NCBI GenBank assembly: GCA_965207735.1
Contig: OZ242296.1
Span: 4,608,001-4,672,000 of the forward strand
Reading direction: 5' to 3'
Source of the DNA: Candidatus Versatilivorator sp.
Lineage (GTDB): Bacteria; Acidobacteriota; Terriglobia; Versatilivoradales; Versatilivoraceae
Length of the DNA stretch: 64,000 nucleotides
Positions within the stretch are counted from its first letter, which is position 1. The number at the start of each line of letters is the position of its first letter. Both the position numbers and the translations under genes were made by a program. Positions 12,950 to 43,431 of the stretch are shown here, piece by piece. The notes under the pieces were generated by a model. The model did no database searches. It saw nothing but the letters and a program-made list of their open reading frames with translations, and had not been told where the DNA came from.

Positions 12950-13983
12950 CCCGCATTTCTCAGTGCGCCATGGAAAGGCGCCTTCTTCCAACGGGTGCGA
13001 AACCCGTCCAACAACTGTCGCTCCGGTTGGTAGCAGCCAGGGCGGATCATGGAGGTAACGATATGGTCTGAAGCCCTCTGGTGTCAAAGGGCCGCTTAAG
13101 GCGGTTCAGCGAGCATGCGGGCCGGAACGCGAGTGAACGTCGAGCAGGCCTCGAAACGGGCAATGCGGGGGCCGACCCACCTGAGAAATGGGGAAGGCCG
13201 AAGACGGAGGGGGAAGCGAGCGACGCGGGCACCCCTTTGGACCCGCCGGGGTAGTGGCGCTGGCACGCATGGAAGGGGAAGAAGGCAGCAACATGGGAAG
13301 CCCTGTGGGTGGTGAGGCACGCACCGAACCGGAAGCTCGCGAGAGTCAGTCTAGGCCGACAGGGTGGCGGAGAGGCCTGTAGTACCGGAGAAGCCGGGTA
13401 ATACCGGTGGAGGGAAGGGGCCTCAGGTGAGGAGCGGTGACCGAAGGGGGAAGGGTCCCGGGAGTGGCGAAAGCCTGAAACCCCGACCAAAAAAGGGCCG
13501 GAGACTCCGGAAGCATCACATGCAAAAGTGAAAGGGTCGTCGGAGGAGGACGGCGTCGTCAGGGCATCAACAGGCCTGGCGGCAACCCGGGAGCGGAAGT
13601 GGATGGAGTGGGGGACGGGTGCCAATCCCATAGGAGTCGTCCACGGATGCGAGCGGGGACCTGTGTGCGAGACGCATGATCCCACTGGAGAGCCGAGATG
13701 CGGGAAAACCGCACGTCCGGTTCGGAGAGCGGGGACTGGAAACGTGATAAGGGAGCCGGACTGAGGCACGAAGCGAAAGCGACGGAATAGCCACCGGACC
13801 CTATAGTCAACGCGCCAGTCCTCGACTCTACCCAGGGGGCATGTACGCGCTGAATGGAAAAAGACAAGCCAAGGCATGCCCAGCGCGGTCTGTTACCCGC
13901 AAGCCCTTCCCATGAAGCCAATCAAAGTACTGAAGATAAACTGCTTTTCGTCATGGCACCAGCGACCTGGTGAGAAATGCGGG
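12950..13983. mobile_element. MITE copy 1 (165 bp once the intron is removed), interrupted in one TIR by a group II intron
   Basis: TIR CCCGCATTTCTCA^CCAGG ... CCTGGTGAGAAATGCGGG; CTAG duplicated at 12946-12949 and 13984-13987; homologous to 42319-43431 in the opposite orientation. Confidence 0.85.
12963..13831 (+). ncRNA. ORF-less group II intron, copy 1 (869 nt)
   Basis: 5' GTGCG and 3' ...CTCGACTCTAC; domain V GAGCCG(A)GATGCGGGAAAACCGCACGTCCGGTTC; ribozyme core colinear with the RT-encoding intron at 15980-17974; no RT ORF. Confidence 0.92.
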
Positions 13984-15717
13984 CTAGCTGTTCACTCGAA
14001 CCGTAACGATGTCCAGTCCGTGATACTTCTGGTGGCGAACGGCAGAAGCGTAGTGCCGCAAAAGGCGGAAGGATAGCTCCCTTTCGTCGTAGATCTCGGT
14101 CTGTTCGTTCAGATAGGCAAGGTGGTCTTCCAGGTTTTCCTCGTCGAAAACCGCCAGGAACTCCAGTTCCACCGCCTCGGCCTCGGGACGCGCCACCAGG
14201 ATCAAGCGCGGCGTTTCCGCGTCCGGATATTCGTTCCCCGGCTGCAACAAGCTCGCCAGGGTTTCCTCACCCGCGGAACGCAGCCGCTCGGTCGCCGCCG
14301 CATCCCAACCCATCCTGACTGCAACCTTCCGGAGGAAGGCATCGATCCGGGGAAGGTCGGCGATATTCAACCGCACCTCCAGGCGACGGCGCCGCGGGCG
14401 GGTCAGTTCCAGGAAAGCGGTCAGCGCGATCGCAGTGGCGGTGCCGACGGTCATGCCGTTGCCGAGCAGCGTGCCCCAGGGATTGCCCAGCAGGTCTTCC
14501 AGAATGTTCTGATGTTGCATGCCGAGGCCTATCGAGAACGCCAAGCCCGCCACCATGGCCTTCTGCGGGTCGAGGCCCGACCGCACCAGGGTCTGGATTC
14601 CTTCCACGAAGAGCATCCCCAGCGCGACCAGCAGGAAGCCCCCCATGACCGGGCTGGGAATGGTGAGCAGCACGCTCGTTACCTTGGGAAAGAACGCCAG
14701 CACCACCAGGAGGGCTCCCATGACATAGGCAACGCTGCGTGCGGTGACCCCGGTGAGGTTGAATAGAGAGACCGTAAGCGACGAATAGGAGGTAGTGGGC
14801 GGTGTCCCGGCAAGCCCCGACAGCAGAATACCCACCCCGTTGGCATAGATTGAGCCTTGAATCAGGCGGAAGTCGGTCGCCCGCGGCCGGCGGCGCGACA
14901 CCTGTTGGACAACCACGGCGTCGCTGATGCTCTTGATGACTTGCACCAGGGTGACAATCAGGAACATCGGCAGCAGTGCCCAGAAGCCGGCGGACGGAAT
15001 CAGGTTCAGCCCCGGAAACCCGCTTTCGGGGACTCCGACCCAGGGAGCCGCGACCAGGCGCTCGAAGTCGTACAGGCCGAAGGGCGCCGCCGCCAGGCAG
15101 CCCGCCGCGATTCCGATCAGCAGCGACCAGGGTCGCCAGATTCCGGGAGCGCGCAGGATCAACATTGTGGCTACGACCAGCGTCACGGCCGCGACGCACG
15201 GACCTGCCGCCAGTGGTGCGCTTTCGGGGACCTCTTTCAGCCGATCGAAAGCGATGGGCAGGACCATGGCTGCGATCAGCATGAGGACCGTGCCGGAGAC
15301 GACCGGCGTGATGATGCGGCGCAGTTGCGGCAGCCACGAGGCCAGCGCCAGGTAAAAGAACGACGAAAGGACGATGAGGCTTGCCAGCATGGCTGGTCCG
15401 CCCTCCGCCAGGGCAAAGACCGAGAGAGCGATGAAGCTGGGCGTGACTCCCGTAATGAGCACGTGGCCGCCGCCCAGTCGCCCGACCTTGGCGGCCTGCA
15501 GCGCAGTGGCCACTCCAACGATGATCAGCGTGGCGAAGACGGCCCACGACAACTGGAGTTTGTCCTGGCCGGCGGCCAGCACGGTGATGGCCACGATCAG
15601 CACCGTCGGGGCCAGCACAATCATGATGCCCTGGATTGCGACCCCAACGGCCACAACCGGAGGACACCGCTCGTCCACTTCGTAGCGGATATTCTGGTTT
15701 GAGCGTGCTGATGGCAA
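13984..15717 (-). CDS. NCS2 (xanthine/uracil permease) family transporter with extra C-terminal soluble domain
   Basis: Many TM segments; YEVDERCP N-terminus, ITPVVSGTV, FFPKVTSVLLTIPSPVMGG; about 130-aa hydrophilic tail; TTG start preceded by GAGG. Confidence 0.85.
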   Translation of the reverse strand: MPSARSNQNIRYEVDERCPPVVAVGVAIQGIMIVLAPTVLIVAITVLAAGQDKLQLSWAVFATLIIVGVATALQAAKVGRLGGGHVLITGVTPSFIALSVFALAEGGPAMLASLIVLSSFFYLALASWLPQLRRIITPVVSGTVLMLIAAMVLPIAFDRLKEVPESAPLAAGPCVAAVTLVVATMLILRAPGIWRPWSLLIGIAAGCLAAAPFGLYDFERLVAAPWVGVPESGFPGLNLIPSAGFWALLPMFLIVTLVQVIKSISDAVVVQQVSRRRPRATDFRLIQGSIYANGVGILLSGLAGTPPTTSYSSLTVSLFNLTGVTARSVAYVMGALLVVLAFFPKVTSVLLTIPSPVMGGFLLVALGMLFVEGIQTLVRSGLDPQKAMVAGLAFSIGLGMQHQNILEDLLGNPWGTLLGNGMTVGTATAIALTAFLELTRPRRRRLEVRLNIADLPRIDAFLRKVAVRMGWDAAATERLRSAGEETLASLLQPGNEYPDAETPRLILVARPEAEAVELEFLAVFDEENLEDHLAYLNEQTEIYDERELSFRLLRHYASAVRHQKYHGLDIVTVRVNS

Positions 15718-15900
15718 TTGAGACCTCTTTGTGCCTCTTGGTGTGAGGATCCCAGGTTAAAGGCTTCCTGGGAACGCTGGCGTACCACCCGCGACGGGGC
15801 AGATCCATCGAGAAGGACTATCTATTCAACATGGATGCACAGGATAATCAGGACGGGAGGCTGCTGCAGGAGAGACTGACTCCGGCGATGATCCCATGCG

Positions 15901-15979
15901 GAAATCGACAAACCTTTCGTGACTTTGGTATCCCGTCGCGGTTAACCCCAACGCCTTAGTGGCCCTTCGCCGTTCTTCG
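15901..15979. repeat. Repeat family A copy, first part (split by the RT intron)
   Basis: Joining this to 17975-18028 rebuilds a sequence colinear with the copies at 18234, 21181, 32930 and 37795. Confidence 0.8.
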
Positions 15980-17974
15980 GTAGAGTCGAGGGGAGGCGCG
16001 CCGGCCTTAGATCGAGGGAGTCGCTGTTGCCGGCGGCTTTCGCCACTCGCCGGTGCCTCAATCTCGTTCCTCGCTGCGTTTCCTCGCCCCCGCTCGTCAA
16101 ACCGGACGTGCGGTTTTCCCGCATCCGGCTTTCAGTCAAGATCATGCCTTCGCCCTCGGAAGGCTCTGTGGCTTCGACCCCAGGCAAGTGAGTCCATAGG
16201 TTTTCCATAGTCTCTCGTCCGAGAAGCGCACACTCCCCCCGGTCCTCACCTTGTGCTTCCGACAGAGCCACTGACGCAGCCGCCCGCCCGCGTGGCGGTC
16301 GATCGCTCGGTAGGCCGGGCTCACCTGCCCCAGAACGAAGTAGTTCGCCCACCCGGTCATCGCCCGGTTCAGGTGTTCTACCATCTGTCCTCGAAGCAGC
16401 GTCCCGTTCCTCGGCGCCGTCCACTCGCTGATCTTGCGGCAGATGCTCTGGACGCTCGCCTGGCTGGGTCGTGTGCCGATGTAGGCTCCTTTCCCTTTGG
16501 GGCGATAGTTGCGTCCGATGCGATATCCCAGAAACCCCATCGGTTCCTCCGGACACCGCAAGCATCGGGTCTTCCGCTCGTTGACCGGTAGCTTCAGCTC
16601 CTCCATGATCCGCTTGACCGCCGTCAGCATCTCTGCCGCCGGTGCCCTGCCGAGTACACGGAAGTCATCCGCATAGTTGACGATCTCCGCACAGAAGCGC
16701 CGGGCATATCCCAGCACCTTCCAGCCCAAAACGAAGCGCCGCATGTAGAGATTGCTGAGCAACGGTGAGATCGGGGCTCCTTGCGGTGTCCCCTTCCGCT
16801 CCCGGCGCCCTCGGTTCCGGCGGCGTCTGCCACCCTTCCCGTCGTCCTCCTCCACCGGCATCTCCAGCCATGCCTTGATGAGCTTGAGCATCCTCCCGTC
16901 ACTCACGCGCCGGGCAATGCTTCGAATCAGCTCCGCATGCGGAATCTCGCCGAAGTAGTTGGACAGGTCGCCGTCAACCACCTCCTGGTAACCCCTTTGC
17001 AGGAGTTCATGCACGCGTTTGACCGCGTCGTTGGCACTCCGCCCCCGCCGATAGCCATATTGCTCCGGTTGCAGGTCCGCTTCGAAGATCGGCTCCAACA
17101 CCAGCAAAGCCGCCGTCTGCGCTACCCGGTCCCGTATGCAGGGTATGCCCAAAGGCCGGAACTTGCCGGGCTGTTTCTTCGGGATCAGCACCTGCCGCAC
17201 CGGCTTCGGTACGTAGGTTCCTTCCCTCAGGTCCCGCGCCAGTTCCCCCAGCCAGCCCTCCACCCCATACGCCTCGATGTCCTTGAAGCCCTCCCCGTCC
17301 ACCCCGGCCGACCCGCCGTTTCGGCGTACCTGTGCCCAGGCTTCCTTCAGAAAGTCCTCTCGCCACACCTTGTCCGACAGCGCATGAAACCGCCGCTTGG
17401 GGTCCTCCTTCGCTTTCGCATGTAGCATGGTCTGGAATTTCCGAACCCCCTCTGACCCTGTTAGACTCTTGTCAGTGGCCACGCCTTGCCTCCTTTCCAT
17501 GCTGCTCTCAACTCAGGGTCCCTTCCCTCCACCGGCGTTACCCGGCTTCTCCGGTACTACCGACCCATCCGCCACCCTGACGGCCCGGCCTGCCCCTCGC
17601 GGGGTCCCGGTTGATGTGTGCCGCATCTCCCCCAGGGCTTCCCGTGTTGCTGCCTTCTTCCCCTTCCATGCGTGCCAGCGTCACTACCCCGACGGAAGCG
17701 GATCGGTGCCCGCGTCGCTCTCTTCCCCATCCGCCAACGGCCTTCCCCTAAAGACAGGAGGGTCGGCTTCCGTATTGTCCGTTTCGAGGCCTGCTCGACG
17801 TTCACTCGCGTTCCGGCCCGCATGCTCGCTGAGCCGCCCTTGGCGGCCCTTGACCCCAGAGTGCTTCAGACCATTTCGTTACCTCCATGATCCGCCCTGG
17901 CTGCTACCAACCGGAGCGACAGTTGTTGGGCGGGGTTCGCACCCGCCAGAAGAAGGCGCCTTTCCACGGCGCAC
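15980..17974 (-). mobile_element. Full-length group II intron (1995 nt) encoding an RT/maturase
   Basis: Minus strand begins GTGCGCCGTGGAAAGG and ends CTCGACTCTAC; domain V AAGCCGGATGCGGGAAAACCGCACGTCCGGTTT; RT ORF lies in domain IV. Confidence 0.95.
16142..17500 (-). CDS. ltrA: Group II intron reverse transcriptase/maturase (no HNH endonuclease domain)
   Basis: GSAGVDG, RPLGIP..RDR, GTPQGAPISPLLSN, YADD, FLGY and domain X (LNRAMTGWANYF); 452 aa, ends without an HNH domain. Confidence 0.95.
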   Translation of the reverse strand: MERRQGVATDKSLTGSEGVRKFQTMLHAKAKEDPKRRFHALSDKVWREDFLKEAWAQVRRNGGSAGVDGEGFKDIEAYGVEGWLGELARDLREGTYVPKPVRQVLIPKKQPGKFRPLGIPCIRDRVAQTAALLVLEPIFEADLQPEQYGYRRGRSANDAVKRVHELLQRGYQEVVDGDLSNYFGEIPHAELIRSIARRVSDGRMLKLIKAWLEMPVEEDDGKGGRRRRNRGRRERKGTPQGAPISPLLSNLYMRRFVLGWKVLGYARRFCAEIVNYADDFRVLGRAPAAEMLTAVKRIMEELKLPVNERKTRCLRCPEEPMGFLGYRIGRNYRPKGKGAYIGTRPSQASVQSICRKISEWTAPRNGTLLRGQMVEHLNRAMTGWANYFVLGQVSPAYRAIDRHAGGRLRQWLCRKHKVRTGGSVRFSDERLWKTYGLTCLGSKPQSLPRAKA

Positions 17975-18028
17975 TGTCTCTTCGTGGATAACTCTTTTTC
18001 TTTTTTCGTTTGTTTCAGACAAGGCAAG
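17975..18028. repeat. Repeat family A copy, second part (5' exon of the RT intron)
   Basis: CTTCGTGGATAACTCTTTTTCTTT...GTTTCAGACAAGGCAAG, near-identical to 33003-33074. Confidence 0.8.
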
Positions 18029-18098
18029 TGACCTTGGCGCCATTTTCGGGTTTTTGGGGAGAACCGGTCTCCGCGGCCTCGCGCTTTCTGCCCTCTGC

Positions 18099-18183
18099 TG
18101 TCGCCGCCTTCGCGGCTCGACGTGGAGCTACCGCTTTCCATGGGCTTACGCCCACGGCTACCTGCTGCCGCCGCTCCGCGGCT
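18099..18183. repeat. REP-like palindromic element
   Basis: GCCGCCTTCGCGGC and GCCGCTCCGCGGC hairpins around a GGGCTTACGCCC hairpin; single copy in the window. Confidence 0.45.
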
Positions 18184-18233
18184 CGATTGGTCGTCCGGGC
18201 GTTCGCCCGGGGATTATCAAATACCAATAAGCT

Positions 18234-18409
18234 CGGCCCCCGCCCTGGTGGGCGGATCATACAAGTGTGAAACAATCAGAAATCGATCAACCCTTCGCGA
18301 ACTTGGTACCCCGTCGCGGCCAACCTCAGCGCCTTAGTGCCCCTTCGTCGTTCTTCGTGCCCCTTCGTGGATAAGTCTTTTTCTTTGTCTTTTGTCGGTT
18401 GTTTCAGGC
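18234..18409. repeat. Repeat family A copy (about 150-175 bp, CACGAAG-rich)
   Basis: CCCCGCCC..GGGCGGATCAT...GGTACCCCGTCGCGG..AACCTCA.CGCCTTAGTG.CCCTTCGTCGTTCTTCGTGCCCCTTCGTGGATAAG plus a T-rich tail. Confidence 0.85.
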
Positions 18410-20734
18410 AAGCCGCGCTTCCCGAAAGGCGCGGTTGACCTGATCACTGGAGAGTCCGGGGCACTCCAGATAGCGCCGGCCCTCCACCGGGAGGACCACC
18501 CGGCTTTCCGTGGAGTCGAACCCTACCGGCCCCTTTCCCGGATCCTCCCACAATTGCAGGCCTTCTCCCGACAATTCCAGCTCCGCCCGGCCGCTGCCCG
18601 CGGTGTGCCAGTAGAGGACCCAGGAGGTTCCCCGGTGTTCGAAGAAGAAGGCGCGCAATTGGTCGTCGCCGTTGCCGCCGCGTTCGATCTGCCAGCAGGG
18701 CGCCAGCTCGAATTCGCCGGCCGCCGTCAGCAGCAGGGTGTGCTCCTGTTCGAGGTTCTTGAGGATCTCCCGGTGGGCCGGCGTCAGCCAGCGGCTCACC
18801 CTGACCTCTTCCCACCGCCGCAGGACTTCCAGGTTGTCCGGCGTCCTGGGGTGTCGAGAAAAGAGTTCCAGCCGGCCCCGGAAGGAAATGGGGCAGTCCC
18901 AGGCGGCGGCCCGGCTGGTGACGAATTCCAACATGTCCGGCTGGGTCCCGACGGTCTCCGCCGAGGGTTCCCAGTAGTCGATCCACCCGTAGTTGAGTCC
19001 GGTGAAGTCCTTGGCGATGCGGGGCGCTTCCTCGCCGGGATGGGCCCGGGTGGCGTCCTTCATCACCTCCGGGCGGAAGATGTCGAAGGCGTTGCCCCGG
19101 GTGAGGATGTGCCAGCTGAAGTGGGACTTGCAGGCTCCTTCCGCAAACAAGGGTCGCGGTTTCAACTGATTCCAGGTGAGCCACTGGGCCCGGGAGACGT
19201 TGAACCAGTAAGGCGGGGGGACGTCCTCGGCGCCGTCGAAGTAGGCGAACCGGAAGCCGGCTTGTCCATAGAGCTTCCCCAGGCGTTGGGCGACCTCCTC
19301 CTGGATGCCTGTCTTTTGATCGTAGACGCCCACCACCCCGGCCACCTCTCCCAGCAGGCCGAATTTGCGGCCGGACCGGTGCGGCCCGGCCCGGCTTCCC
19401 AGGGCTCCCCTGCGGCATCCCAGGAAGCGGTAGGGGCGCTCGGTGGTGAAGGAGCCGTACTCTACCAGTTCCTCCTCCAGTTTCAGCACCTTGACCGCGG
19501 AGTCGAGGTCGCAGCCCTCGGGGTTTTCCTCGACGTCGATTGTGGTCTGCCCGGCATCCGTGGCGCCGGCCAGGGTAAAGGTACGCTTCAGGTTCAGGCG
19601 AGGATCGGGCCGGGGAGTGATATAGGGGTCCTGCCCGATGGCCTTGTTGTAGTGGTGATGGAGTCCCGGAATCAGGCCGGCATCCTTGATCTTGCGGACG
19701 ATCTGCTGCAGGTCCCGGATGCCCCGGGGGAAGCGGTCCTTTCGAAAGCGGTAGTGCCCCGGGTTCGGGGCAAAGGCGGTGTAGTAGATCATGAAAGTCC
19801 GGAATCCGCCCCGCCTGGCGTATTCCAGGTGGCGGTCGATGTTTCCGGGAGTGACGTCGCTGACCCAGTAGTAGGAGTAGGGGTATTCCCTGCGCCGCCG
19901 ACTCTCCACACCGGGAGGCAGTTCGAAGTCCCTTTCCACCTGCGCCACCCCGTCCAGGATCCGGTCGGCGCCGGTCACGACAAGCGCCGCTCCCACCCCC
20001 TCCAGCTTGACCTCCCGTATGGCCGCGGCCTGCATCAGGTGGTAACCGTCCCGCTCCAGTCCGTCGATGCGCGGGTAGGGGTCGGATCCCAACAGGCAGA
20101 CGGCCACCGAGTCGTCCCACTGGACGTTCAGCCACTCCCCGAAATGCGTGCGGTCGCGCACCGGAAGCTGAAGCAGGCATACTTCGTCTAGCGGCGTCGG
20201 CCGTTTCTGGCGGAACCCCGGCTTTCCGGCCGACTCGATCTTCTCCACCGCAAAGCTGAAGTAGTCCTCGGTGACCCGGGTCTTGAGGGTCACTTCATGA
20301 TCCACCAGCTCGAACTCCAGCACCAGCCGATCTCCTTGGCGGCGAACCGAACGGGCAGGGAAGGTCCTCGATTTGGCGGGGTATCGGAGTTGCAGCTCGT
20401 TTTCGTAGGGGCGGTACTGGGTTACCGAAAAAACGGGGGTCGCGGTCCCCGGAGCCAGGCATTCCTGGCCGGTCCCCTTGTGCCAGAGGCTGCGGGCGGT
20501 GCCTTCGGGCCCGATGATCAAGCGGGCTTGCCGGTTTTCCAGGACGATGTCGTCGGGTTCCGGAATTACCGGCTTCCCGGCGGTCGAAACCCGCTTTCCG
20601 GACTTCTCCAGCCCACAGCCGGGGGCCAGCAGCCCGGCGGCCCCCGCCAGAGTTCCGGACTTCAGGAAGTCCCTCCGGCTTTGACCGCCTGGAGCCCGGC
20701 CTTGACCTGGGGATCGTTTGGCTTCGTTCTCCAT
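18404..20734 (-). CDS. Tat-exported protein, probable glycoside-hydrolase-like TIM barrel
   Basis: SRRDFLK twin-arginine signal with lipobox-like APGC; F.KDRFP.G..L...I.DAGL.PGLH and AYFDG motifs resemble GH27/GH36-clan barrels. Confidence 0.6.
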   Translation of the reverse strand: MENEAKRSPGQGRAPGGQSRRDFLKSGTLAGAAGLLAPGCGLEKSGKRVSTAGKPVIPEPDDIVLENRQARLIIGPEGTARSLWHKGTGQECLAPGTATPVFSVTQYRPYENELQLRYPAKSRTFPARSVRRQGDRLVLEFELVDHEVTLKTRVTEDYFSFAVEKIESAGKPGFRQKRPTPLDEVCLLQLPVRDRTHFGEWLNVQWDDSVAVCLLGSDPYPRIDGLERDGYHLMQAAAIREVKLEGVGAALVVTGADRILDGVAQVERDFELPPGVESRRRREYPYSYYWVSDVTPGNIDRHLEYARRGGFRTFMIYYTAFAPNPGHYRFRKDRFPRGIRDLQQIVRKIKDAGLIPGLHHHYNKAIGQDPYITPRPDPRLNLKRTFTLAGATDAGQTTIDVEENPEGCDLDSAVKVLKLEEELVEYGSFTTERPYRFLGCRRGALGSRAGPHRSGRKFGLLGEVAGVVGVYDQKTGIQEEVAQRLGKLYGQAGFRFAYFDGAEDVPPPYWFNVSRAQWLTWNQLKPRPLFAEGACKSHFSWHILTRGNAFDIFRPEVMKDATRAHPGEEAPRIAKDFTGLNYGWIDYWEPSAETVGTQPDMLEFVTSRAAAWDCPISFRGRLELFSRHPRTPDNLEVLRRWEEVRVSRWLTPAHREILKNLEQEHTLLLTAAGEFELAPCWQIERGGNGDDQLRAFFFEHRGTSWVLYWHTAGSGRAELELSGEGLQLWEDPGKGPVGFDSTESRVVLPVEGRRYLECPGLSSDQVNRAFREARLA

Positions 20735-20845
20735 CGTCTATGCTCCTGAATGGCCGCCCGCCCGGATCCACTTCGGTGGTTCGGCACAGAATCCAACGGC
20801 ACGAGCCTTTTGCAATATTCGTCGTGGAGTGCTAGGGAGGAACAA

Positions 20846-21061
20846 TCAATCTACTTCGGTAGACACGAACCAGCCTTTCACGGGACAAGCGAGGAGTGTA
20901 TCCACCAGTCCCTGGTTCTTCGGGGGTTCGGCGAGCACAAGACGATATTCACCATTATCCACCCGTTCGATATCAAACGCCTGGCCGGGTTGGATGTTGT
21001 CGTGCTTGCGCAGTTCTACCGGTATGACGATCTGGCCTTTGGTAGAGATGACGGTTTTCAT
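20846..21061 (-). CDS. AbrB/MazE/SpoVT-family DNA-binding protein (antitoxin-like)
   Basis: STKGQIVIPVELRK...I.PG signature; 71 aa. Confidence 0.8.
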   Translation of the reverse strand: MKTVISTKGQIVIPVELRKHDNIQPGQAFDIERVDNGEYRLVLAEPPKNQGLVDTLLACPVKGWFVSTEVD

Positions 21062-21180
21062 GCCAGGTAAGCTAACATCTTACCGGGATAATTGTCGACC
21101 CTGAGAGGTTCGCGCATTTATTCGAATTCGGGCCGGCAATCACACGACTTACCATTTCCGATACCATAGGACAGGCAAGT

Positions 21181-21323
21181 CCGGCCCCCGCCCTGCCGGG
21201 CGGATCATTCAAGAGTGAAAAAATCGGAAATCGATAATCCTTTCGTGACCTTGGTACCCCGTCGCGGTTAACCTCAACGCCTTAGTGGCCCTTGGTGGAT
21301 GACTCTTTTTTCTTTTGTTTCAG
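21181..21323. repeat. Repeat family A copy
   Basis: Colinear with 18234-18409 and 32930-33074. Confidence 0.85.
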
Positions 21324-21435
21324 TCCGCGGGAAAGCGAAGCTGGAGGTGGAATCAGTCAGGATGCAGAATTACCGTTGGAAGGAGTATGATGGTTCTGCC
21401 AATATAGTCCCGGAAGTTCGAAGGGAGGCACGACA

Positions 21436-22386: not shown

Positions 22387-22411
22387 CCAACCGGGGCTTC
22401 CTGACGGCTCA

Positions 22412-22816: not shown

Positions 22817-22874
22817 AGATCGGCCATGACTCAGCCCGGTCCAAGAATCTACAGGATCCAGCCAGTCCACCGGT

Positions 22875-24347: not shown

Positions 24348-24360
24348 TATTCTAACTCAC

Positions 24361-29825: not shown

Positions 29826-29902
<77 letters not shown>

Positions 29903-32929: not shown

Positions 32930-33074
32930 CCCTTTCGTGACCGTGGTACCCCGTCGCGGCCAACCTCAGCGCCTTAGTGCCCCTTCGTCGTTCTTAGTGC
33001 CCCTTCGTGGATAAGTCTTTTTCTTTTGTCTTTTTTCGTTTGTTTCAGACAAGGGTTGTTTCAGACAAGGCAAG
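32930..33074. repeat. Repeat family A copy
   Basis: Near-identical to 18290-18409. Confidence 0.85.
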
Positions 33075-33086
33075 ACATGCGGACCT

Positions 33087-34148: not shown

Positions 34149-34290
34149 GGAAGGGTCCTCGGGGCAGACTGGGAAGGGTATTGGCTGGTATGGTTCCCTT
34201 CGGGGTCGTCAAAGAAACTCTCGGCTGAGGGTCCGATTATACGCCGGGCTGATCGACTGATCCAGATTCGGTTGAATGGGACGGGGCGTT

Positions 34291-34750: not shown

Positions 34751-34977
34751 CCTGACCCCGAGTCTACAGCACATCGATACAGGCGGAGCGGCTGCTGCCT
34801 TGAGGGGGAGTTACAGAAGCCGAACTGGAAGCTGCCTTCGGAATTCCCGTGCTAGAATTCCGAAGGATGTGGCGGTCCCACCCGTCATGACAAGGCCTGT
34901 CGGCAGAGCCGCAGTTTCCAAGCGGGGTTCAAGCCAGGGTGCTTGTGTGGGACCCATCCGATTGGAGAGACCCGCCC

Positions 34978-36189
34978 ATGGCCGAGTTCGACCACCTCCT
35001 CACTTCCCGCGAATACGCGCAGAGTCCCTATCCCACTTACCACCTGCTGCGCCGCGAGGCTCCCATATACTGGAGCGATCTCTGGGGTTGTTGGATCCTC
35101 ACCCGCTATCGGGAAATTGTCAGCACCCTCCAAAATCCCAGGCGCTTCACCAGCGTCGGCAGGCTTACCGCCACCATGGAGCTCCCGCAAGCCGTTCGGG
35201 AACAGGTCCAGCCCCTGGTGCGCCACTATTCCCAGGGTCTCATCAATGTGGACCCACCGGATCACACCCGTCTGCGCAAACTGGTGCACAAGGCCTTCCT
35301 GCCCGGCACCATCGGCGCCATGGCCGGTTACGTGGAGGAGATTGTCGAGGGGCTGATCGACGAGGTGCGGCATCGGGGCAGGATGGACATCATCTGGGAC
35401 TTCTCCTACCCCTTGCCGGTCACGGTCATTGCCAGGCTGTTGGGAGTCCCGGCGGCTGACCACGGCAAGCTCAAGCGCTGGTCGGGGAAGATTATCGAGT
35501 TCATGGCCACCCCCAAGCCCGTGCCCGAAGTGCTCTTGTCATCCCAGGAGGCTCTGTTGGCTCTGCAGGACTACTTTCGTTCGACCTTCAGGCGGCGGCG
35601 ATTGGAGCCGGGCGAAGATCTCATCAGCGCCCTGGTGGCTGCCGAAGAGGAAGGGGAACGACTGACCGAAGAGGAACTCATTTCGACCTGCGTGACCTTG
35701 CTGATCGGCGGGCACGAGACCACCACCTACCTGATCTCCAGCGGCGTGCTGGCCCTGATCCAGCACCCGGAACAGATGCGGAAGCTGAGAGCCGAACCGG
35801 ACAAGGCCGGGACGGCGGTGGAAGAGATGCTGCGCTACGAGGGACCGTTCCAGCGCAACCGCCGCCTCGCCACCGAGGCGGTGGAGTTGGACGGCCATCT
35901 CGTTCAGAAGGGTCAACTGGTGGTGCAGATGCTGGGTGCGGCCAACCGGGACCCGGCCGTATTCCCCAACCCGGACTCATTCGATATCGAGCGGCACCCC
36001 AATAGACATGTCTCCTTCGGTCAGGGTCCTCACTTCTGTGTGGGAGCACCGCTGGCGCGTCTGGAAGCTCCCATCGCCATCAACGCGCTGCTGCGGCGTT
36101 TGCCCAACCTTGAGCTGGCCACGGATGAGCTGGTCTGGAAAAATACGGTCTTTCGCGGCCTGGAGCGGCTCCCGGTGACCTTTGGGTGA
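34978..36189 (+). CDS. Cytochrome P450
   Basis: DPPDHTRLR, GGHETT, EEMLR (ExxR), FGQGPHFCVG heme Cys. Confidence 0.95.
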   Translation: MAEFDHLLTSREYAQSPYPTYHLLRREAPIYWSDLWGCWILTRYREIVSTLQNPRRFTSVGRLTATMELPQAVREQVQPLVRHYSQGLINVDPPDHTRLRKLVHKAFLPGTIGAMAGYVEEIVEGLIDEVRHRGRMDIIWDFSYPLPVTVIARLLGVPAADHGKLKRWSGKIIEFMATPKPVPEVLLSSQEALLALQDYFRSTFRRRRLEPGEDLISALVAAEEEGERLTEEELISTCVTLLIGGHETTTYLISSGVLALIQHPEQMRKLRAEPDKAGTAVEEMLRYEGPFQRNRRLATEAVELDGHLVQKGQLVVQMLGAANRDPAVFPNPDSFDIERHPNRHVSFGQGPHFCVGAPLARLEAPIAINALLRRLPNLELATDELVWKNTVFRGLERLPVTFG

Positions 36190-36252
36190 GTGCCGGGCCG
36201 GGCCGGACTCTCTTGCAAAATCGGAAAGCAGGGCCAGGTTCACGGAATCCCT

Positions 36253-36657
36253 CTACCGGAAAGCCATCCGGTTCCAGCCCTGATCCTCCTGCTTGCTGGG
36301 CCCCGGGGGCGGCGGAGCGAAGGCGTAGAAGTAGCAGAGGTCTTCGTGGCCGTCGTTGAAGGACTGGTGCTCGACTCCCGCCGGAATGTAGACGGTCATG
36401 CCCTTCTCGACCCTGAAATCCTGACCGTCCATGACCAGTCTCCCCCGGCCGCTCACCACGTAGTAGATTTCGGCCGACTCGGGGTGGATGTCGGCCTGGG
36501 TCTCATGCCCCGGGTGCAGCCAGAAGAATCCGGCCGCGATGTCGCCGGCGCCGCAGGTTTCGGGGCTCACCAGCAGATTGACCCGGCGGGACCCATCGGG
36601 AGCCTGCCAGACAGGGAAGTGCTTCGGGTCCAGGACCCATTCCGGATTGTGTGCCAT
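36253..36657 (-). CDS. Cupin-domain protein
   Basis: H..SAEIYYVVSG.G and VYIPAGVEH cupin motifs. Confidence 0.85.
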   Translation of the reverse strand: MAHNPEWVLDPKHFPVWQAPDGSRRVNLLVSPETCGAGDIAAGFFWLHPGHETQADIHPESAEIYYVVSGRGRLVMDGQDFRVEKGMTVYIPAGVEHQSFNDGHEDLCYFYAFAPPPPGPSKQEDQGWNRMAFR

Positions 36658-36751
36658 TGAGAATGCCTTTCTTGTGGAAAGCCGGGGGAAGATTGGGGGA
36701 GGATGGGAGCCGACTGCTCCTTGAACCTTTTCGCCGTCCGCCGGATGGAAG

Positions 36752-37507
36752 TCAAATCAAGAGCGAGCCTCCGTTGACGTGCATGGTCGAACCCGTCACG
36801 TAGCTCGACCGGGGACCGGCCAGGAACAGGACCGCTTCGGCGATTTCCCGAGGCGTTCCCTGGCGCTTCACCAGCGATGCCTCCACGTACCTTTGCAGGT
36901 TCTCCTCACCGAAGGCCTCGGCAAGGGGAGTATCGATGCTTCCCGGCGCAATGGCGTTGGAGAGGATGCCGTCGGAAGCAAACTGCTTGGCCAGGTACTT
37001 GGAGAGCACAATGACGCCCGCCTTGCTCACCCCGTAGCCGACGTGACCGGTGACGCTGCCCACGAAAGCTCCCACCGAGGAGATGTGGACCAGCCGGCCG
37101 AACTTCCGTTTCCTCATATGGGGCAGCACCGCCTTGCTGCAAAGGAAGGCGCTGGTCAGGTTGACCGAGAGCATTCGGTTCCAGCTTTCCAGCGTAGTCC
37201 GGTCCCAGGGAACCATGGGGCAGATGCCGGCGTTGTTGACCAGGATGTCGATTCGCCCGAACCGTTCCGCGGTGGCCTGAACCATGCGGTCCACCTGGTC
37301 CGGCTCGGAAACGTCGGTCTCCGAAACCAGCAGGTCGCAGCCGCAACGCTTCCGCAGCTCTGAAGCCAGGTCTTGCAGGGGGGGCGCCTGGTTGTCGGCC
37401 AGCGTCAGGCCGGCCGCTCCTTCCCGGGCGAAGAGTTCGGCCACGCCGCGGCCGATCCCGGAGGCCGCCCCGGTGACGATGGCCACCCTTCCGTTCAATT
37501 CATTCAT
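36752..37507 (-). CDS. Short-chain dehydrogenase/reductase (FabG-like)
   Basis: TGAASGIG, NNAG, YGVSK, NAIAPG. Start trimmed to MNELNGR. Confidence 0.92.
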   Translation of the reverse strand: MNELNGRVAIVTGAASGIGRGVAELFAREGAAGLTLADNQAPPLQDLASELRKRCGCDLLVSETDVSEPDQVDRMVQATAERFGRIDILVNNAGICPMVPWDRTTLESWNRMLSVNLTSAFLCSKAVLPHMRKRKFGRLVHISSVGAFVGSVTGHVGYGVSKAGVIVLSKYLAKQFASDGILSNAIAPGSIDTPLAEAFGEENLQRYVEASLVKRQGTPREIAEAVLFLAGPRSSYVTGSTMHVNGGSLLI

Positions 37508-37794
37508 GACGGGTAGTTGTTGAACCGGCTTGCGCTCGGGCCGGCAAAGTGGAGGCGCCGTTCCATCGGGCCGTCCCTGCCATGGCGGCGTGAACGGCCG
37601 GCGCGCGCCAGGCATTACCCTTTGCAGCCTTCGAGCAAGACCGGGTTTCGTGGGCTCCGGCCTCCAGGATGCTATCTTAAGTGCCTGGAGTCGAGCGATG
37701 CAACCTCGGTTGAGGACTGTCCCTCCACTTTGTTTCGTCGGCCGGTGCAGCTTGCCGCGCAGCCAGGAGCCCTCTGCTATACTGGCGGACCTAT

Positions 37795-37960
37795 TTGAAA
37801 CAAAAGAAAAAGAGTTATCCACGAAGGGCCACGAAGAACGACGAAGGGCCACTAAGGCGTTGAGGTTAACCACGACGGGTTACCAAGGTGACGAAGGGAT
37901 TATCGATTCCCGATTTTTTTGCTCTCGTATGATCCGCCCGGCAGGGCGAGGGCTGGACTT
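37795..37960. repeat. Repeat family A copy (opposite orientation)
   Basis: GAGTTATCCACGAAGGGCCACGAAGAACGACGAAGGGCCACTAAGGCG...ATGATCCGCCCGGCAGGGCG. Confidence 0.85.
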
Positions 37961-37987
37961 ATTCGGTCCCGGATTTAGAGAAAGACG

Positions 37988-39256
37988 ATGAGGATTCGCT
38001 TCGTACATGCCGCCGACCTTCACCTGGACAGCCCCTTCACCGGCTTGAAGGCCGCCGCGCCCGAAAACGTGGCGACCGCGCTGTATAGCGCCACCTTTGA
38101 CGCGTACGAGAACATCATCAACCTGTGCATTTCCGAAGAGGTGGACGCGCTGCTGGTGGCTGGGGACGTCTACGATGGAGCCGACCGCAGCCTGCGCGCC
38201 CAACTCAAGTTCGTCGAGGGGCTGAATAAGTTGGACACCCAGGGCATTCGCTCCTTCGTCTGCCACGGCAACCACGACCCCTTGGACGGCTGGCAGGCAC
38301 GGCTGGATTATCCGCAAAGCTGTCGCCGCTTTGGCACCGAGTGGGAAGCCGTGCCGGTGTTCGAGAACCCGAACCGAGCGGTCATACACGGTATCAGCTA
38401 CCCGAAGCGCGAGTTTACTGAGAACCTGGCCCGCCGCCTTGGAAGGGTCGATCCCGGCCCGTTCTCGATCGGGCTGCTGCACGCCAACGTGAGCAATGAC
38501 CCCAACCACGCGGCTTACGCCCCCTGCTCGCTAGAGGACCTTGCAACGTCCGGCATTGACTACTGGGCGCTCGGCCACGTGCACACCCGCCAGGTTCTGA
38601 GCGAGCGGGAACCGGCGGTTGTCTATCCCGGCAACCCACAGGGCCGGCATCCGAACGAAACCGGCCCTCGAGGTGTCTATCTTGTCGAGGTGGACGATGG
38701 CGGAAACGTGCACTCGACGTTCCACCCGATGGCCACCGTCCGGTGGGAAACGTTCCAGGTCGACATCGCGCCGTTCGAGAGGGAACAGGAACTGCTGGAC
38801 GCATTGCAGGAAGGAATGCAAGGTCTGCTGGACAGCACCGACGGCCGGTCGGCCGTCGGTCGCGTTACCCTCACCGGACGCGGTGCGTTGAACCGAACTC
38901 TCCGCAGGCCGAACACCATTGATGACCTCGTCGAAAAAATCAATGGGGAATGGGCCGAAAGGTCACCGTTCGTCTGGTGCGAACGCATTGAGGACGCAAG
39001 CGCATCTCCGTTCGACCGCGAAGCCAGGCTGAAGGGTTCCGATTTTCTGGCGGAAGTGCTGCGGACGGCCGACCGGGCGAAGACCGACCCCGCACTAATC
39101 TCCAGACTTGGCGCCGGGCTTTCCGACCTCTACCAGCACCACCGCTTTCGCCGATATTTGTCCAAGCTTGCCCCAAACGAGGAGGACATTGCCGCGCTGG
39201 TCGAAGAGGCTGAGGCCATGGCCGTGGACCTGCTTGCCGAGGACGACGACCGATGA
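37988..39256 (+). CDS. yhaO: SbcD/Mre11-like metallophosphoesterase nuclease
   Basis: ADLHLDSPF, AGDVYD, GNHD, ALGHVH, YPGNPQGRH. Confidence 0.88.
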   Translation: MRIRFVHAADLHLDSPFTGLKAAAPENVATALYSATFDAYENIINLCISEEVDALLVAGDVYDGADRSLRAQLKFVEGLNKLDTQGIRSFVCHGNHDPLDGWQARLDYPQSCRRFGTEWEAVPVFENPNRAVIHGISYPKREFTENLARRLGRVDPGPFSIGLLHANVSNDPNHAAYAPCSLEDLATSGIDYWALGHVHTRQVLSEREPAVVYPGNPQGRHPNETGPRGVYLVEVDDGGNVHSTFHPMATVRWETFQVDIAPFEREQELLDALQEGMQGLLDSTDGRSAVGRVTLTGRGALNRTLRRPNTIDDLVEKINGEWAERSPFVWCERIEDASASPFDREARLKGSDFLAEVLRTADRAKTDPALISRLGAGLSDLYQHHRFRRYLSKLAPNEEDIAALVEEAEAMAVDLLAEDDDR

Positions 39257-42078
39257 AGATTCTGAATCTGCACATCGACGGCTTCGGGCGGTTTGCAGAC
39301 CGGGCATTGGGGCCGTTCGAACGGCCCGTTACCGTCTTTTTCGGTCCCAACGAGGCGGGCAAGAGCACTCTCCTGGAGTTTGTTCGAAGGGTGTTTTTTG
39401 GATTCCCCGACGGTCGCAGCAGCAACAATCCTTACCCGCCGCTGGCCGGTGGCCGGCACGGGGGTACTGTCACCATCGTCAGCGACGCCGGTGAGACCGT
39501 CACCGTTCAGCGATTCCAGGGAACGCACGGCGGGCCGGTCAGGCTGGCCGCCGCATACGGCGGGCCGCTCCCCGACGGCGAATTGCCACGTCTGTTAGGC
39601 CACCACTCCAGGGATGTCTTTCAGAACATCTTTGCCTTCACGCTTGAGGAACTCAACGATGAGACCCTGCTGAAAGACGACACCGTCAACGCTCAGATAT
39701 ACAGCGCCGGTATGGGCGCGACGAAGCTGCCCGCATCACTGAAAGCGCTTGAGGTCGAGAAGCAATCCCTGTTCCTCAAGGGCGGCAACAAACACAAGAT
39801 CATCCAGGCCGGCAATGCGCTCAGCGAGATCGAATCCACTTTGAGACAGGTAAAACAGCACGCCGCGAAATACGGTGAACTGATGACCCGCCTCGCAGGG
39901 GTCAAGGAGGAGCTCGAACGGCTAAGCGGCCTCCGCCGGAAGCGTCAGTCGGAACTCGATCACCAGAAGCGGCTGGAGAGTGCCTGGGGTGACTGGAACG
40001 ACCTCAACCAGGCCGAGGAAGAGCTGGCCGGGTTGCCGCCCATCGACGATTTCCCCATCGACGGCGTCAGCCGACTGAAAACACTGGAGGAGCGGATCAA
40101 GACTGCGCAGGAGGAATACGACTCCGCAGACGAGGCGATTGAGGAAGCCAAAGCCAAGGCGGAGGCGGTGGTTGAGCATCAGACCATCCTCAACCATACG
40201 GACGAAATCCGAACGCTGGAACAGGGCCGTACCTTCTTCAACAACGCCGTCCGTGACTTGCCGAAGCGCAATGCTGAACTCGAAGATCATGAGAAGTTGT
40301 TGGCCGAAACCTTGAAGGATCTCGGTCCTGACTGGGACGAAGCCCGCCTGGAGAATTTCGACCTGTCCCTGGCCGTCCGCGAGGAAATCTCGCGATTCCA
40401 GGGGTGTCTGCGAAAGGCGCACGAGGAACTCGATCAGAGCAACTCCAATCTCACTCGGAATCAGACCCTGTTGGAGGAAGCTGTCGAGGCGAAGGGCAGG
40501 TCCGAACGGGAGCTCGAGGTTGCCGTCAAGCCGCCCGGTGGCAAGAACGGCGGCAAAGTGCTGCCCGCCATCTGCGCTGCCGTCGGCATGGCGCTTTTGG
40601 CCGTGGGGTCGGTACTTGGCGGGTCTGCTCTCTTCCTGGGAATTATCGGAGGCGTCGCGCTCGCGGCTGTCGCCGCATACTTGTTCCGGTCCGGCCAGTC
40701 ATCTACGGGCACTGAAATGGAACATGCGCGTCTCTCCAGGGACCTCGACAGTGCGAGAGGTTTGGCCCAGCAACGGAAGAAAAGGGTGGAGGATTCCCGG
40801 AAAGCTGTCGAAGAGGCGGAGCGTTCACTCGCGTCCGTTCAGAGAGATTGGCGGCAGTGGCTCGCAGACCGAGATCTGCGGGAGACGTTCTTGCCGGAGA
40901 CCGTGGTGGAGCTTCGCGGCAAGGTCGAACTTGGACGTGATCGATTGAACAGTCTAGGAAGCCATCGGCAGCGCATCGACGCAATACGGAAGAATATCGA
41001 TAACTACGTTGCAATGGCCGTGCCTCTGGCGTCGGACTTCGGCGCTCCCTTCGACAGGAACGAATCGAGTACCGTCAATGCCGCTGTCGCGAAGCTGATC
41101 GGACTGCACGATGAGGTCGACGGGAAGGTCAACGACCGGAAGGCAGCCGAGGAGGAATTGATCAAGGCCGAGAGCCGGTTGAAGGAGCGCGAAAGCAATC
41201 TCCGGAAGGCGACCGAGATGATGAAGGGGCTGCTCCGATCCGGTGGCGCCGCCGATGGCGAGGACTTTCGTACGCGGGCAGAGATCGTGCGGCAGAGAAC
41301 GAAACTGGAAGAGCAGCGACGCGGCGCGCTCGGACGACTGCAGCGCCTCAGCGGCCCCGGAGAGCCGCTCGAAGCCTTGAAGAAGCAACTTGCGGACACG
41401 GATTTTCAGACCATACGCGACGAGAAACGCTTGCTCGAGGAAAAAATTGAACCCGCCGACGCAGAGATAAGAGAGTTGTCCACCAAGCAGGGATCGATCC
41501 AATCCGACCTCAAGAGCCTGACCGGCGAGGAGGAGTCATCGAAGCTGCGGGCGGAACGGCACCGCCTGTTGGAGGAGATGCGCGGCCATGCGCGGGAGTG
41601 GGCGGTTCGAACCATCGCCCAGAACCTTCTCAAGGAGGCGCAAGGCAAGTTCGAGAAGGAGCGCCAGCCTGACGTGGTACGCCACTCCGAAGAGTTCTTC
41701 CGCACCATCACCGACGGGCGTTATCAGACAGTGTTTTCTCCGCTCGGCAGTTCGGAGATACAGGTAACGGATTCCTCGGGCATCTCCAAACAGCCCAACC
41801 AGCTCAGCCGCGGTACGCGGGAGCAGTTATTCCTGTCGCTGCGGTTCGGGCTGGTCCGCGAGTTGGGCCAGCGGTCGGAGCCGCTTCCGGTGATCGTGGA
41901 CGAGGCGTTGGTGAACTTCGATCCCGACCGGGGACTGCGGGCCGCGCGTGCCTTCGTGGAGTTGTCCCGGACCAACCAGGTGCTGGTCTTTACCTGCCAT
42001 CCGACGATCGTGGAACTTTTCCAAAACGCGGTGGCCCAGTCAGGTGTGCAAGAGCCGGAAGTGGTCCCAATTGATTGA
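39253..42078 (+). CDS. yhaN: YhaN-like SMC/Rad50-type ATPase with central TM hairpin
   Basis: GPNEAGKST Walker A; long coiled coils; LSRGTREQL signature; IVDEALVNFD Walker B; FTCH; overlaps yhaO by ATGA. Confidence 0.88.
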   Translation: MKILNLHIDGFGRFADRALGPFERPVTVFFGPNEAGKSTLLEFVRRVFFGFPDGRSSNNPYPPLAGGRHGGTVTIVSDAGETVTVQRFQGTHGGPVRLAAAYGGPLPDGELPRLLGHHSRDVFQNIFAFTLEELNDETLLKDDTVNAQIYSAGMGATKLPASLKALEVEKQSLFLKGGNKHKIIQAGNALSEIESTLRQVKQHAAKYGELMTRLAGVKEELERLSGLRRKRQSELDHQKRLESAWGDWNDLNQAEEELAGLPPIDDFPIDGVSRLKTLEERIKTAQEEYDSADEAIEEAKAKAEAVVEHQTILNHTDEIRTLEQGRTFFNNAVRDLPKRNAELEDHEKLLAETLKDLGPDWDEARLENFDLSLAVREEISRFQGCLRKAHEELDQSNSNLTRNQTLLEEAVEAKGRSERELEVAVKPPGGKNGGKVLPAICAAVGMALLAVGSVLGGSALFLGIIGGVALAAVAAYLFRSGQSSTGTEMEHARLSRDLDSARGLAQQRKKRVEDSRKAVEEAERSLASVQRDWRQWLADRDLRETFLPETVVELRGKVELGRDRLNSLGSHRQRIDAIRKNIDNYVAMAVPLASDFGAPFDRNESSTVNAAVAKLIGLHDEVDGKVNDRKAAEEELIKAESRLKERESNLRKATEMMKGLLRSGGAADGEDFRTRAEIVRQRTKLEEQRRGALGRLQRLSGPGEPLEALKKQLADTDFQTIRDEKRLLEEKIEPADAEIRELSTKQGSIQSDLKSLTGEEESSKLRAERHRLLEEMRGHAREWAVRTIAQNLLKEAQGKFEKERQPDVVRHSEEFFRTITDGRYQTVFSPLGSSEIQVTDSSGISKQPNQLSRGTREQLFLSLRFGLVRELGQRSEPLPVIVDEALVNFDPDRGLRAARAFVELSRTNQVLVFTCHPTIVELFQNAVAQSGVQEPEVVPID

Positions 42079-42318
42079 CACCACCGACGAAAAAGGACCT
42101 CTGGCGAAATGGCCTTGAACGAGGCCATGGCCATCCCGGCGATGGTCGCGCACGGGGGCTTCCATTCCGGCGCCCGGGGCGGTCCCGGTGGCGCCGGCGG
42201 CTTTGTTCACTGCTTCGCCGACTCTGGAGGGGGCTTCTCGCGGCAGGGATCTCTTCCCAGGGGAGCGGCCGCGAACCTGTCGGGTTGACCCCGCCGTCAC
42301 CGGCCGGGAGAGGCTTAA

Positions 42319-43431
42319 CCCGCATTTCTCAGTGCGCCATGGAAAGGCGCCTTCTTCCAACGGGTGCGAAACCCGTCCAACAACTGTCGCTCCGGATGGT
42401 AGCAGCCAGGGCGGATCATGGAGGTAACGATATGGTCTGAAGCCCTCTGGTGTCAAAGGGCCGCTTAAGGCGGTTCAGCGAGCATGCGGGCCGGAACGCG
42501 AGTGAACGTCGAGCAGGCCTCGAAACGGGCAATGCGGGGGCCGACCCACCTGAGAAATGGGGAAGGCCGAAGACGGAGGGGGAAGCGAGCGACGCGGGCA
42601 CCCCTTTGGACCCGCCGGGGTAGTGGCGCTGGCACGCATGGAAGGGGAAGAAGGCAGCAACATGGGAAGCCCTGTGGGTGGTGAGGCACGCACCGAACCG
42701 GAAGCTCGCGAGAGTCAGTCTAGGCCGACAGGGTGGCGGAGAGGCCTGTAGTACCGGAGAAGCTGGGTAATACCGGTGGAGGGAAGGGGCCTCAGGTGAG
42801 GAGCGGTGACCGAAGGGGGAAGGGTCCCGGGAGTGGCGAAAGCCTGAAACCCCGACCAAAAAAAGGGCCGGAGACTCCGGAAGCATCACATGCAAAAGTG
42901 AAAGGGTCGTCGGAGGAGGACGGCGTCGTCAGGGCATCAACAGGCCTGGCGGCAACCCGGGAGCGGAAGTGGATGGAGTGGGGGACGGGTGCCAATCCCA
43001 TAGGAGTCGTCCACGGATGCGAGCGGGGACCTGTGTGCGAGACGCATGATCCCACTGGAGAGCCGAGATGCGGGAAAACCGCACGTCCGGTTCGGAGAGC
43101 GGGGACTGGAAACGTGATAAGGGAGCCGGACTGAGGCCCGAAGCGAAAGCGACGGAATAGCCACCGGACCCTATAGTCAACGCGCCAGTCCTCGACTCTA
43201 CCCAGGCCGCTGGTGCCATGACGATAAGTAGTTTATCTTCAGTACTGTGATTGGCTCCAGGGGAAGGGCTTGCGGGTAACAGACGGCGCTGGGCATGCCT
43301 TGGCTTGTCTTTTTCCCTTCAGCGCGCACATGCTCCCTCGCGCGTAGTGACCGCTACGCTCTTCGGTCGCGAGCACGCGCTGAAGGGAAAAATTCTGCGC
43401 CATGTTCATGCCCCCTGGTGAGAAATGCGGG
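42319..43431. mobile_element. MITE copy 2 (243 bp once the intron is removed), interrupted in its other TIR by a group II intron
   Basis: Same 18-bp TIR as copy 1; TTAA duplicated at 42315-42318 and 43432-43435; internal 17-bp inverted repeat (43310-43326 / 43376-43392). Confidence 0.85.
42332..43201 (+). ncRNA. ORF-less group II intron, copy 2 (870 nt)
   Basis: GTGCG...CTCTAC; by eye differs from copy 1 by 3 substitutions and one extra A. Confidence 0.92.

Follow-up and report, generated by a model that had tools for sequence, protein, structure and literature searches.

The stretch of DNA analysed here (the window) comprises 64,000 nucleotides of the acidobacterium Candidatus Versatilivorator sp. 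(assembly GCA_965207735.1, contig OZ242296.1, positions 4,608,001 to 4,672,000 of the forward strand), whose genome, labelled G000, is a single contig (C1) of 5.26 Mb. It contains two group II introns devoid of an open reading frame (ORF), each inserted into one terminal inverted repeat (TIR) of a miniature inverted-repeat transposable element (MITE). A preliminary description of this DNA had recognized the introns and their hosts; it did not mention an intron encoding a reverse transcriptase (RT), an IS1182-family insertion sequence (IS) abutting the first ORF-less copy, or the presence of the same TIR in a full-length IS1380-family element. The most likely reading of these sequences is that the ORF-less intron, whose exon-binding sites 1 and 2 (EBS1 and EBS2) match the first 13 bases of the TIR, retrohomes in trans with the RT of endonuclease-less relatives that the genome also contains.

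Both window introns score above the gathering thresholds of the Rfam models for domain I and domains V-VI (RF02003, RF00029; Table 1) and carry the hallmarks of the class: a GUGYG 5' end, an AY 3' end, an AGC triad in domain V (DV) and a bulged adenosine in domain VI (DVI). On these features they are group II introns that are predicted to splice. The DV-DVI segment folds with a z-score of -4.9, and none of 200 shuffled sequences was equally stable. Four differences, 3 of them substitutions and 1 an indel, separate the two copies, much as the preliminary description had counted, and its view that they lack an RT agrees with our searches: no RT remnant was detected by tblastn against 10 related intron-encoded proteins (IEPs; best E-value 0.18), and local alignments seeking an ORF remnant in domain IV (DIV) scored 66–77.5, below the shuffled maxima of 85.5–87.5. 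Long ORFs running across the intron (13047-13877, minus strand; 11766-13058, plus strand) have no Pfam match and were taken to be spurious. Each copy is directly preceded by CCCGCATTTCTCA and directly followed by CCAGG, and in both copies all six base pairs can form between EBS1 and intron-binding site 1 (IBS1) as well as between EBS2 and IBS2. In metatranscriptome contigs covering the stretch (4 runs from 3 studies), 15 of the 16 joints were listed, and none of these corresponds to ligated exons, a lariat or a circle; these Logan contigs, many only 90–95% alike and with depth summed over relatives and copies, are used neither for nor against splicing, and ligated exons would in any case look the same as an empty TIR in DNA.

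The host MITEs are much more diverged than the introns, as had been noted, and are occupied at opposite ends (A and B): they differ by 9 mismatches over 165 shared bp and by one 78-bp deletion, approximately 12 times the intron divergence. The CTAG and TTAA target duplications attributed to them are both present. In the genome, the repeat terminates 42 MITEs (130–254 bp) and 21 copies of a 1698-bp IS, with identical 4-bp flanks in 27 of the former and 20 of the latter. This IS encodes a DDE transposase of the IS1380 family (NF033539, 410.6 bits against a cut-off of 180) and generates a 4-bp YTAR duplication, and the outer 17 bp of its TIR are common to those of the MITEs. The latter are short, bounded by TIRs, multi-copy and flanked by target duplications, and the element with the cognate transposase resides in the same genome, as is typical of MITEs; the common TIR and the YTAR flanks suggest that they are mobilized by the IS1380 transposase. 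Their origin as simple deletion derivatives of this IS was rejected, as the interior has no similarity to it beyond the TIR; in other respects the arrangement resembles that of IS1380-family ISs that share TIRs with MITEs. Each of the two target duplications in the window shares bases with the stop codon of a gene in convergent orientation, encoding a permease (13984-15717) and a repeat protein (43432-45459), respectively. The genome also holds a 38-bp element consisting of TIRs only, along with back-to-back TIRs on one 4-bp site (C1:2315632-2315670, 2586495, 3557895, 4913395).

A BLAST search of the genome retrieved 28 full-length ORF-less copies (at least 99.5% identity), one diverged ORF-less copy, one 117-nt copy with an internal deletion and 15 RT-coding relatives. 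All 28 full-length copies interrupt the sequence CCCG(C/T)ATTTCTCA^CC, one of them with a single C>T change, so that the insertion point proposed for the two window copies, between TIR nucleotides 13 and 14, holds throughout, and the suggested check for copies in other contexts without IBS pairing found every one at an IBS-matching TIR site. The hosts are 19 MITEs, 6 full IS1380-family elements and 3 unpaired TIR-like sites. Since 6 of the 28 copies reside in the full IS, the target is the IS1380-type end and not the MITE as such; MITE-specific homing, as originally described, is not supported. When the introns are removed in silico, the genome offers 147 perfect 14-base sites, 27 of which are filled, and the 28th filled site has one mismatch that could form a G-T pair. 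The 28 copies represent 6 haplotypes, with 22 copies identical. The same junction recurs 34 times in three other assemblies (14 in G005, 13 in G011 and 7 in G009), and a metagenome pattern scan found 5 stretches. As a test of a need for YTAR, fork-aligned perfect sites with TA at positions -16/-15 were compared to those without it, and were filled in 22/52 versus 2/14 cases (p 0.07). The 117-nt mini intron (C1:4260992-4261108, locus L045) fuses an RT-type 5' end to an ORF-less DVI end, and its target is a palindrome that is also found at C1:1135573 and C1:4589468.

Table 1. Positions of the introns, their hosts and adjoining elements in the window (a dot marks features without a strand).
Feature	Position	Strand	Details
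IS1182-family element, abutting the intron-bearing TIR of copy 1	11366..12945	-	transposase 11547-12869; NF033551 389.6 bits, cut-off 270; between two CTAG
Host MITE 1	12950..13983	.	165 bp without intron; 78-bp internal deletion; perfect 18-bp TIRs; intron in end A
MITE 1 target duplication CTAG	12946-12949 and 13984-13987
5' exon (TIR nt 1-13)	12950..12962	+	IBS2 CCCGCA 12950-12955, spacer T, IBS1 TTCTCA 12957-12962
ORF-less group II intron, copy 1	12963..13831	+	869 nt, GUGCG...AC; RF02003 80.8 bits, RF00029 41.2 bits
Predicted alpha element	13017..13023	+	complementary to putative alpha' 13218-13224; assigned from sequence
Putative EBS2, UGCGGG	13164..13169 (copy 2: 42533-42538)	+	complementary to IBS2 = TIR nt 1-6
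Putative EBS1, UGAGAA	13182..13187 (copy 2: 42551-42556)	+	in d3 hairpin loop of fold; complementary to IBS1 = TIR nt 8-13
Domain V	13690..13723	+	AGC triad 13691-13693; fold z -3.2
Domain VI, long	13726..13829	+	bulged branch A 13825, 7 nt from 3' end
Empty TIR of MITE 1	13966..13983	-	counter-directional to fork
Related RT-coding group II intron, candidate helper	15980..17974	-	ORF 16142-17500, 452 aa, YADD, RT and maturase domains
Host MITE 2	42319..43431	.	243 bp without intron; perfect 18-bp TIRs; intron in end B
MITE 2 target duplication TTAA	42315-42318 and 43432-43435
ORF-less group II intron, copy 2	42332..43201	+	870 nt; RF02003 74.7 bits, RF00029 41.2 bits
Empty TIR of MITE 2	43414..43431	-	counter-directional to fork

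The orientation of the filled sites follows replication. With fork direction set by dnaA (3.54 Mb) and the GC-skew maximum (0.73 Mb), 24 of the 28 filled sites are co-directional with the fork, as opposed to 40 of the 116 perfect sites that are empty (Fisher p 1e-6), and in 22 of 25 occupied two-ended elements the filled end is the fork-aligned one. The statement that each MITE provides two sites is accurate in that there is one per strand, but it is mostly the fork-aligned one that is used. Co-directional insertion means that the target strand is the template of lagging-strand synthesis, and a strong bias of this kind is expected for retrohoming without an endonuclease; excerpts of the papers on RmInt1 and RmInt2 report the same lagging-template bias (PMC4615759, PMC5894124). 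Double occupancy was found in none of the 25 two-ended elements, with approximately 2 cases expected by a rough estimate, a shortfall that is not significant alone. In the three other assemblies, 29 of the 34 junctions are fork-aligned (G005 11/14, G011 11/13, G009 7/7), counting all TIR junctions including RT-coding ones, with the origin placed at dnaA and the terminus taken as opposite. Unpaired perfect TIRs lean counter-directional genome-wide (25/39).

This sequence pattern is best explained by independent trans-retrohoming at replication forks, with a probability that we would put at roughly 0.85, and independent homing of a non-autonomous intron is well supported. Under this reading, the IEP of a relative would assist in splicing a read-through transcript, the lariat would reverse-splice into the single-stranded lagging-strand template at the fork, and the 3' end of the nascent lagging strand would prime cDNA synthesis; with each new insertion of IS1380 or a MITE, two sites would arise, of which one is fork-aligned. 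Such a mechanism matches those described, in the excerpts consulted, for RmInt1/RmInt2 (PMC4615759, PMC5894124) and TeI3 (PMC2882425). The proposal of independent and recent retrohoming in the preliminary description is supported by the small number of haplotypes, the many hosts, the use of both ends and the fork bias.

The principal competing explanation is a one-time entry of the intron into a few TIRs, after which it would have been carried as a passenger by MITEs and ISs moved by the IS1380 transposase. The intron leaves the outer 13 bp of the TIR intact, imperfect right ends are tolerated by the IS1380-family element ISEcp1, and IS copies are mostly identical, which makes the six IS-borne introns indistinguishable by host; one pair of MITEs (C1:5027596 and 5213340) is, moreover, identical and filled at the same end. 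We nevertheless consider joint transposition improbable, because the filled full-length MITEs differ by 0–12 substitutions (mean 7.3 for end B and 10.2 for end A) whereas 22 of the 28 introns have one and the same sequence, insertions are seen in at least six types of host end, the derived intron variant 433 C>T is common to an end-A host and an end-B host, and the fork bias tracks the filled TIR rather than the element (22/25). A slightly smaller probability is assigned to spread or homogenization by DNA recombination, with gene conversion from filled to empty TIRs and no RNA step. Recombination between introns is evident in these genomes (see below), and for c-Ha.de.I1 a gene conversion involving two subgroups of the intron has been published (excerpts of PMC3522654); homology upstream of the intron is, however, limited to 13 bp, the sequences downstream of the three unpaired sites are unrelated, and neither the fork bias nor the EBS-IBS match across intron families is predicted by conversion. 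That repeats were collapsed or misplaced in the assembly is very improbable: the genome is repeat-rich and probably metagenome-assembled, but it forms one contig in which every copy has distinct flanks and the duplications are intact, and the recurrence of the junction in three other assemblies speaks against the artefact that the preliminary description had considered.

Several observations weigh against independent trans-retrohoming. Four of the 28 copies are counter-directional to the fork, and the GC skew is reversed over ~3.95–4.5 Mb, where fork direction is uncertain; using local skew, the count becomes 23 of 28. The reversal suggests a large inversion; close to this region lie an IS1182-IS1380-intron stack (~3.947 Mb) and an RT intron (~4.519 Mb). 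The identical MITE pair, the only one among 35 full-length MITEs, would also be expected from a move of the composite or from gene conversion. Two ORF-less copies in G005 occupy a site at which IBS1 alone is fully matched, and in G009 the two TIR-type RT copies are each interrupted, while the single intact RT copy observed has another EBS1. Within the ORF-less intron itself, EBS3 was not located, and by alignment and fold its DV has one bulged A more than that of RT-coding relatives.

Candidate helpers for trans mobilization are present in the genome. An ORF of 452–455 aa is found in 14 of the 15 RT-coding relatives, and one of these introns (C1:5004992) has the same EBS1 and EBS2, an intact 452-aa ORF and an insertion in the same TIR. 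The ORF-less intron lacks an IEP ORF, has near-identical copies at EBS-matched sites and coexists with an intact related IEP, as would be expected of a TeI3-like system, and the copy pattern together with the fork bias suggests mobility by a trans-acting IEP. The RT intron of the window, 2.1 kb from copy 1 and 86% identical to it over the 5' half, has a different EBS1 and is a member of a 13-copy family whose target is another repeat. Across relatives, EBS1 changes with the target, and introns in which its sequence differs sit in other, matching repeats. The repeat targeted by the 13-copy family (in the window at 15899-16008, 17975-18413, 21177-21334, 32931-33070 and 37800-37963) is a dispersed intergenic family with ~200 motif matches in the genome, and it contains a motif one base off the DnaA box consensus. 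Profile matches to the IEPs recovered domains for RT and maturase but none for an endonuclease, and visual inspection of two IEP translations did not reveal the class D C-terminal motif LX3AX3PXLF[V/A]HW, as given in an excerpt of PMC4615759. The long DVI resembles an excerpted description of IIF introns (PMC3753933), which we take as a lead only; assignment to class C (IIC), whose introns have no EBS2 and insert downstream of terminators or attC sites, was rejected in view of the EBS2 match and the TIR target. A plasmid search with the IEP returned only generic 'ltrA' names, with a best identity of 54%.

The two halves of the ORF-less introns appear to have different histories. Trees were computed for 20 introns in total, from the genus level and the outgroup, using the last 150 nt as the 3' and the first 455 nt as the 5' portion. 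The 3' tree separates ORF-less from RT-coding introns with 100/100 support, whereas the 5' tree groups introns by target, uniting the ORF-less and RT-coding TIR homers. With the EBS region masked, the AU test rejects monophyly of the ORF-less introns for the 5' half (p 0.00036) and monophyly of the TIR homers for the 3' half (p 0.00035); the groups were picked after pairwise identities had been seen, and these p-values are therefore somewhat generous. In an analysis that excluded the unalignable DIV, three ORF-less variants inserted in other repeats (in G000, G005 and G008) switch from RT-coding to ORF-less type at nt 388–411, with informative sites divided 51/3 before and 2/63 after the switch, 45/2 and 5/57, and 46/5 and 2/56 (permutation p ≤ 0.0005); those in G005 and G008 may have a common origin. 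In the TIR-aimed pair the shared part extends to ~nt 460–475, and transfer may have gone in either direction. These sequence patterns point to an old ORF-less lineage defined by its DIII-DVI part, which likely changes target by exchanging the EBS-bearing DI-DII part with RT-coding relatives. If so, non-autonomous introns would retarget by recombination and not only by point mutation of EBS, and DI-DII would provide an 869-nt ribozyme with a guide that is portable by nature, a point of relevance to the design of targetrons.

The IS1182 element next to copy 1 is inserted in the CTAG of the MITE. IS1182 inserts at CTAG, and of its 13 near-full genomic copies, 10 have an IS1380-type TIR as immediate neighbour on one side or both, compared to just 92 of 1689 CTAG sites. 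Nine of the 13 have the transposase-start end against the TIR, and 7 of these 9 TIRs are filled. Among fork-aligned perfect sites with TA upstream, all 7 that adjoin IS1182 are occupied, whereas 15 of the remaining 45 are (p 0.0013), a post hoc comparison on small numbers. Elsewhere, the single IS1182-TIR junction in G011 is filled, while all 4 in G009 are empty, which indicates that IS1182 does not need the intron; the context in G009 is only 7 junctions against 161 empty CTAG-TIR sites. No outward promoter was found in the IS1182 end, the sole sigma-70-like match being antisense within the intron. This match (13058-13087, minus strand, 10/12) lies in DI and is aimed at the adjacent IS1182 transposase; one was found against 0.2 expected, and it is not retained in every relative. 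A wider scenario, to which we give about even odds from these sequences, is that an old RT-less DIII-DVI chassis persists across an acidobacterial class and is re-aimed time and again by DI-DII swaps with RT-coding introns of the same genome at the DII/DIII junction, as it tracks expanding repeats or transposon ends, and that insertion of IS1182 on the IS1380 duplication makes the adjoining end preferred, giving a four-member nest of IS1380, MITE, intron and IS1182.

The closest parallel is RmInt2 of Sinorhizobium meliloti GR4, which, according to excerpts of PMC4615759 and PMC5894124, likewise uses both inverted repeats with sites on opposite strands, lacks an endonuclease and shows lagging-template bias; its authors argue that, with the left and the right inverted repeat of ISRm17 both serving as targets, twice as many sites are available and one is sure to lie on the lagging template (PMC4615759). 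RmInt2 has its own class D IEP and 7 copies, whereas the main invader here is ORF-less and has 28, mostly in MITEs, with an IS1380-family IS as the full-length target and helper IEPs without the class D C-terminal motif. The present element thus works like RmInt2 without being class D by that motif. In Thermosynechococcus elongatus, ORF-less TeI3 copies are mobilized in trans by 'driver' IEPs, and family F4 occupies a fixed site in ISEL1 (PMC2882425, in excerpt). ORF-less copies outnumber RT-coding ones in both systems, families differ in EBS and an IS serves as target; the TeI introns, however, retain clear ORF remnants and their IEPs an endonuclease domain, with no remnant detectable here, and ISEL1 belongs to the IS200 rather than the IS1380 family. 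The TeI3 ORF-less families are attributed to a single early deletion of the ORF, after which their EBS diverged, while the 5' halves of the present introns track RT-coding relatives. Subgroups with different targets, one of them in an IS, and a gene-conversion tract are also known from c-Ha.de.I1 of Hamiltonella defensa; the excerpts of that paper (PMC3522654) report one 700-bp conversion and do not describe retargeting of an ORF-less chassis by exchange. Bacterial ORF-less introns are called rare and nearly always found beside related IEPs in the part consulted of a review (PMC4424553).

ORF-less homing into TIRs, regarded as unusual in the preliminary description, has a precedent for each of its two components, TIR homing in RmInt2/ISRm17 (PMC4615759) and ORF-less IS homing in TeI3 F4 (PMC2882425), as excerpted, and the headline behaviour is a clean new example rather than a new principle. 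As the TIR and ORF-less habits were already known, the less familiar part is the apparent swap of the targeting half with RT-coding relatives. A full-text literature search, covering mostly papers outside subscription, found no ORF-less intron in MITE TIRs, no intron in IS1380 TIRs and no ORF-less retargeting by DI exchange. The closed genome amounts to a natural experiment in which 147 perfect sites, 27 of them filled, give a direct measure of fork bias and occupancy. TIR insertion may halt the movement of IS1380 or the MITE, as the preliminary description had suggested for the latter, and this becomes directly testable. The genome also illustrates that most of its copies would escape RT-based surveys, with 29 ORF-less against 15 RT-coding.

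Beyond this genome, the closest IEPs (82–94%) occur mostly in Candidatus Versatilivorator, Versatilivoraceae and Terriglobia. One related RT family is found at base 13/14 of a ~2085-bp YTAR-flanked element at 7 of 14 loci, the one ORF checked being of the IS1634 family, and an intron of Gemmatimonadota occupies the same type of position in an IS1380 element. TIR homing as a clade-wide trait was rejected, given that, of the 52 distinct 5' exons found among RT relatives, no more than 17 have TA at -16/-15. ORF-less relatives of 721–909 nt (L012, L016, L018) are present in two other families of the class, at sites starting with CCC 12–13 bases after CTAA. A 27-bp inverted-repeat pair in the window (61401-62398) matches the 5' exon of another EBS variant in relatives (L010, L011, L071, L072). 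Head-to-tail tandem arrays, reportedly formed also by RmInt2, occur in several relatives (L057, L091, L092, L094, L096, L102, L106), and in one of them (L096) ORF-less units of 719 nt are mixed with RT-coding units.

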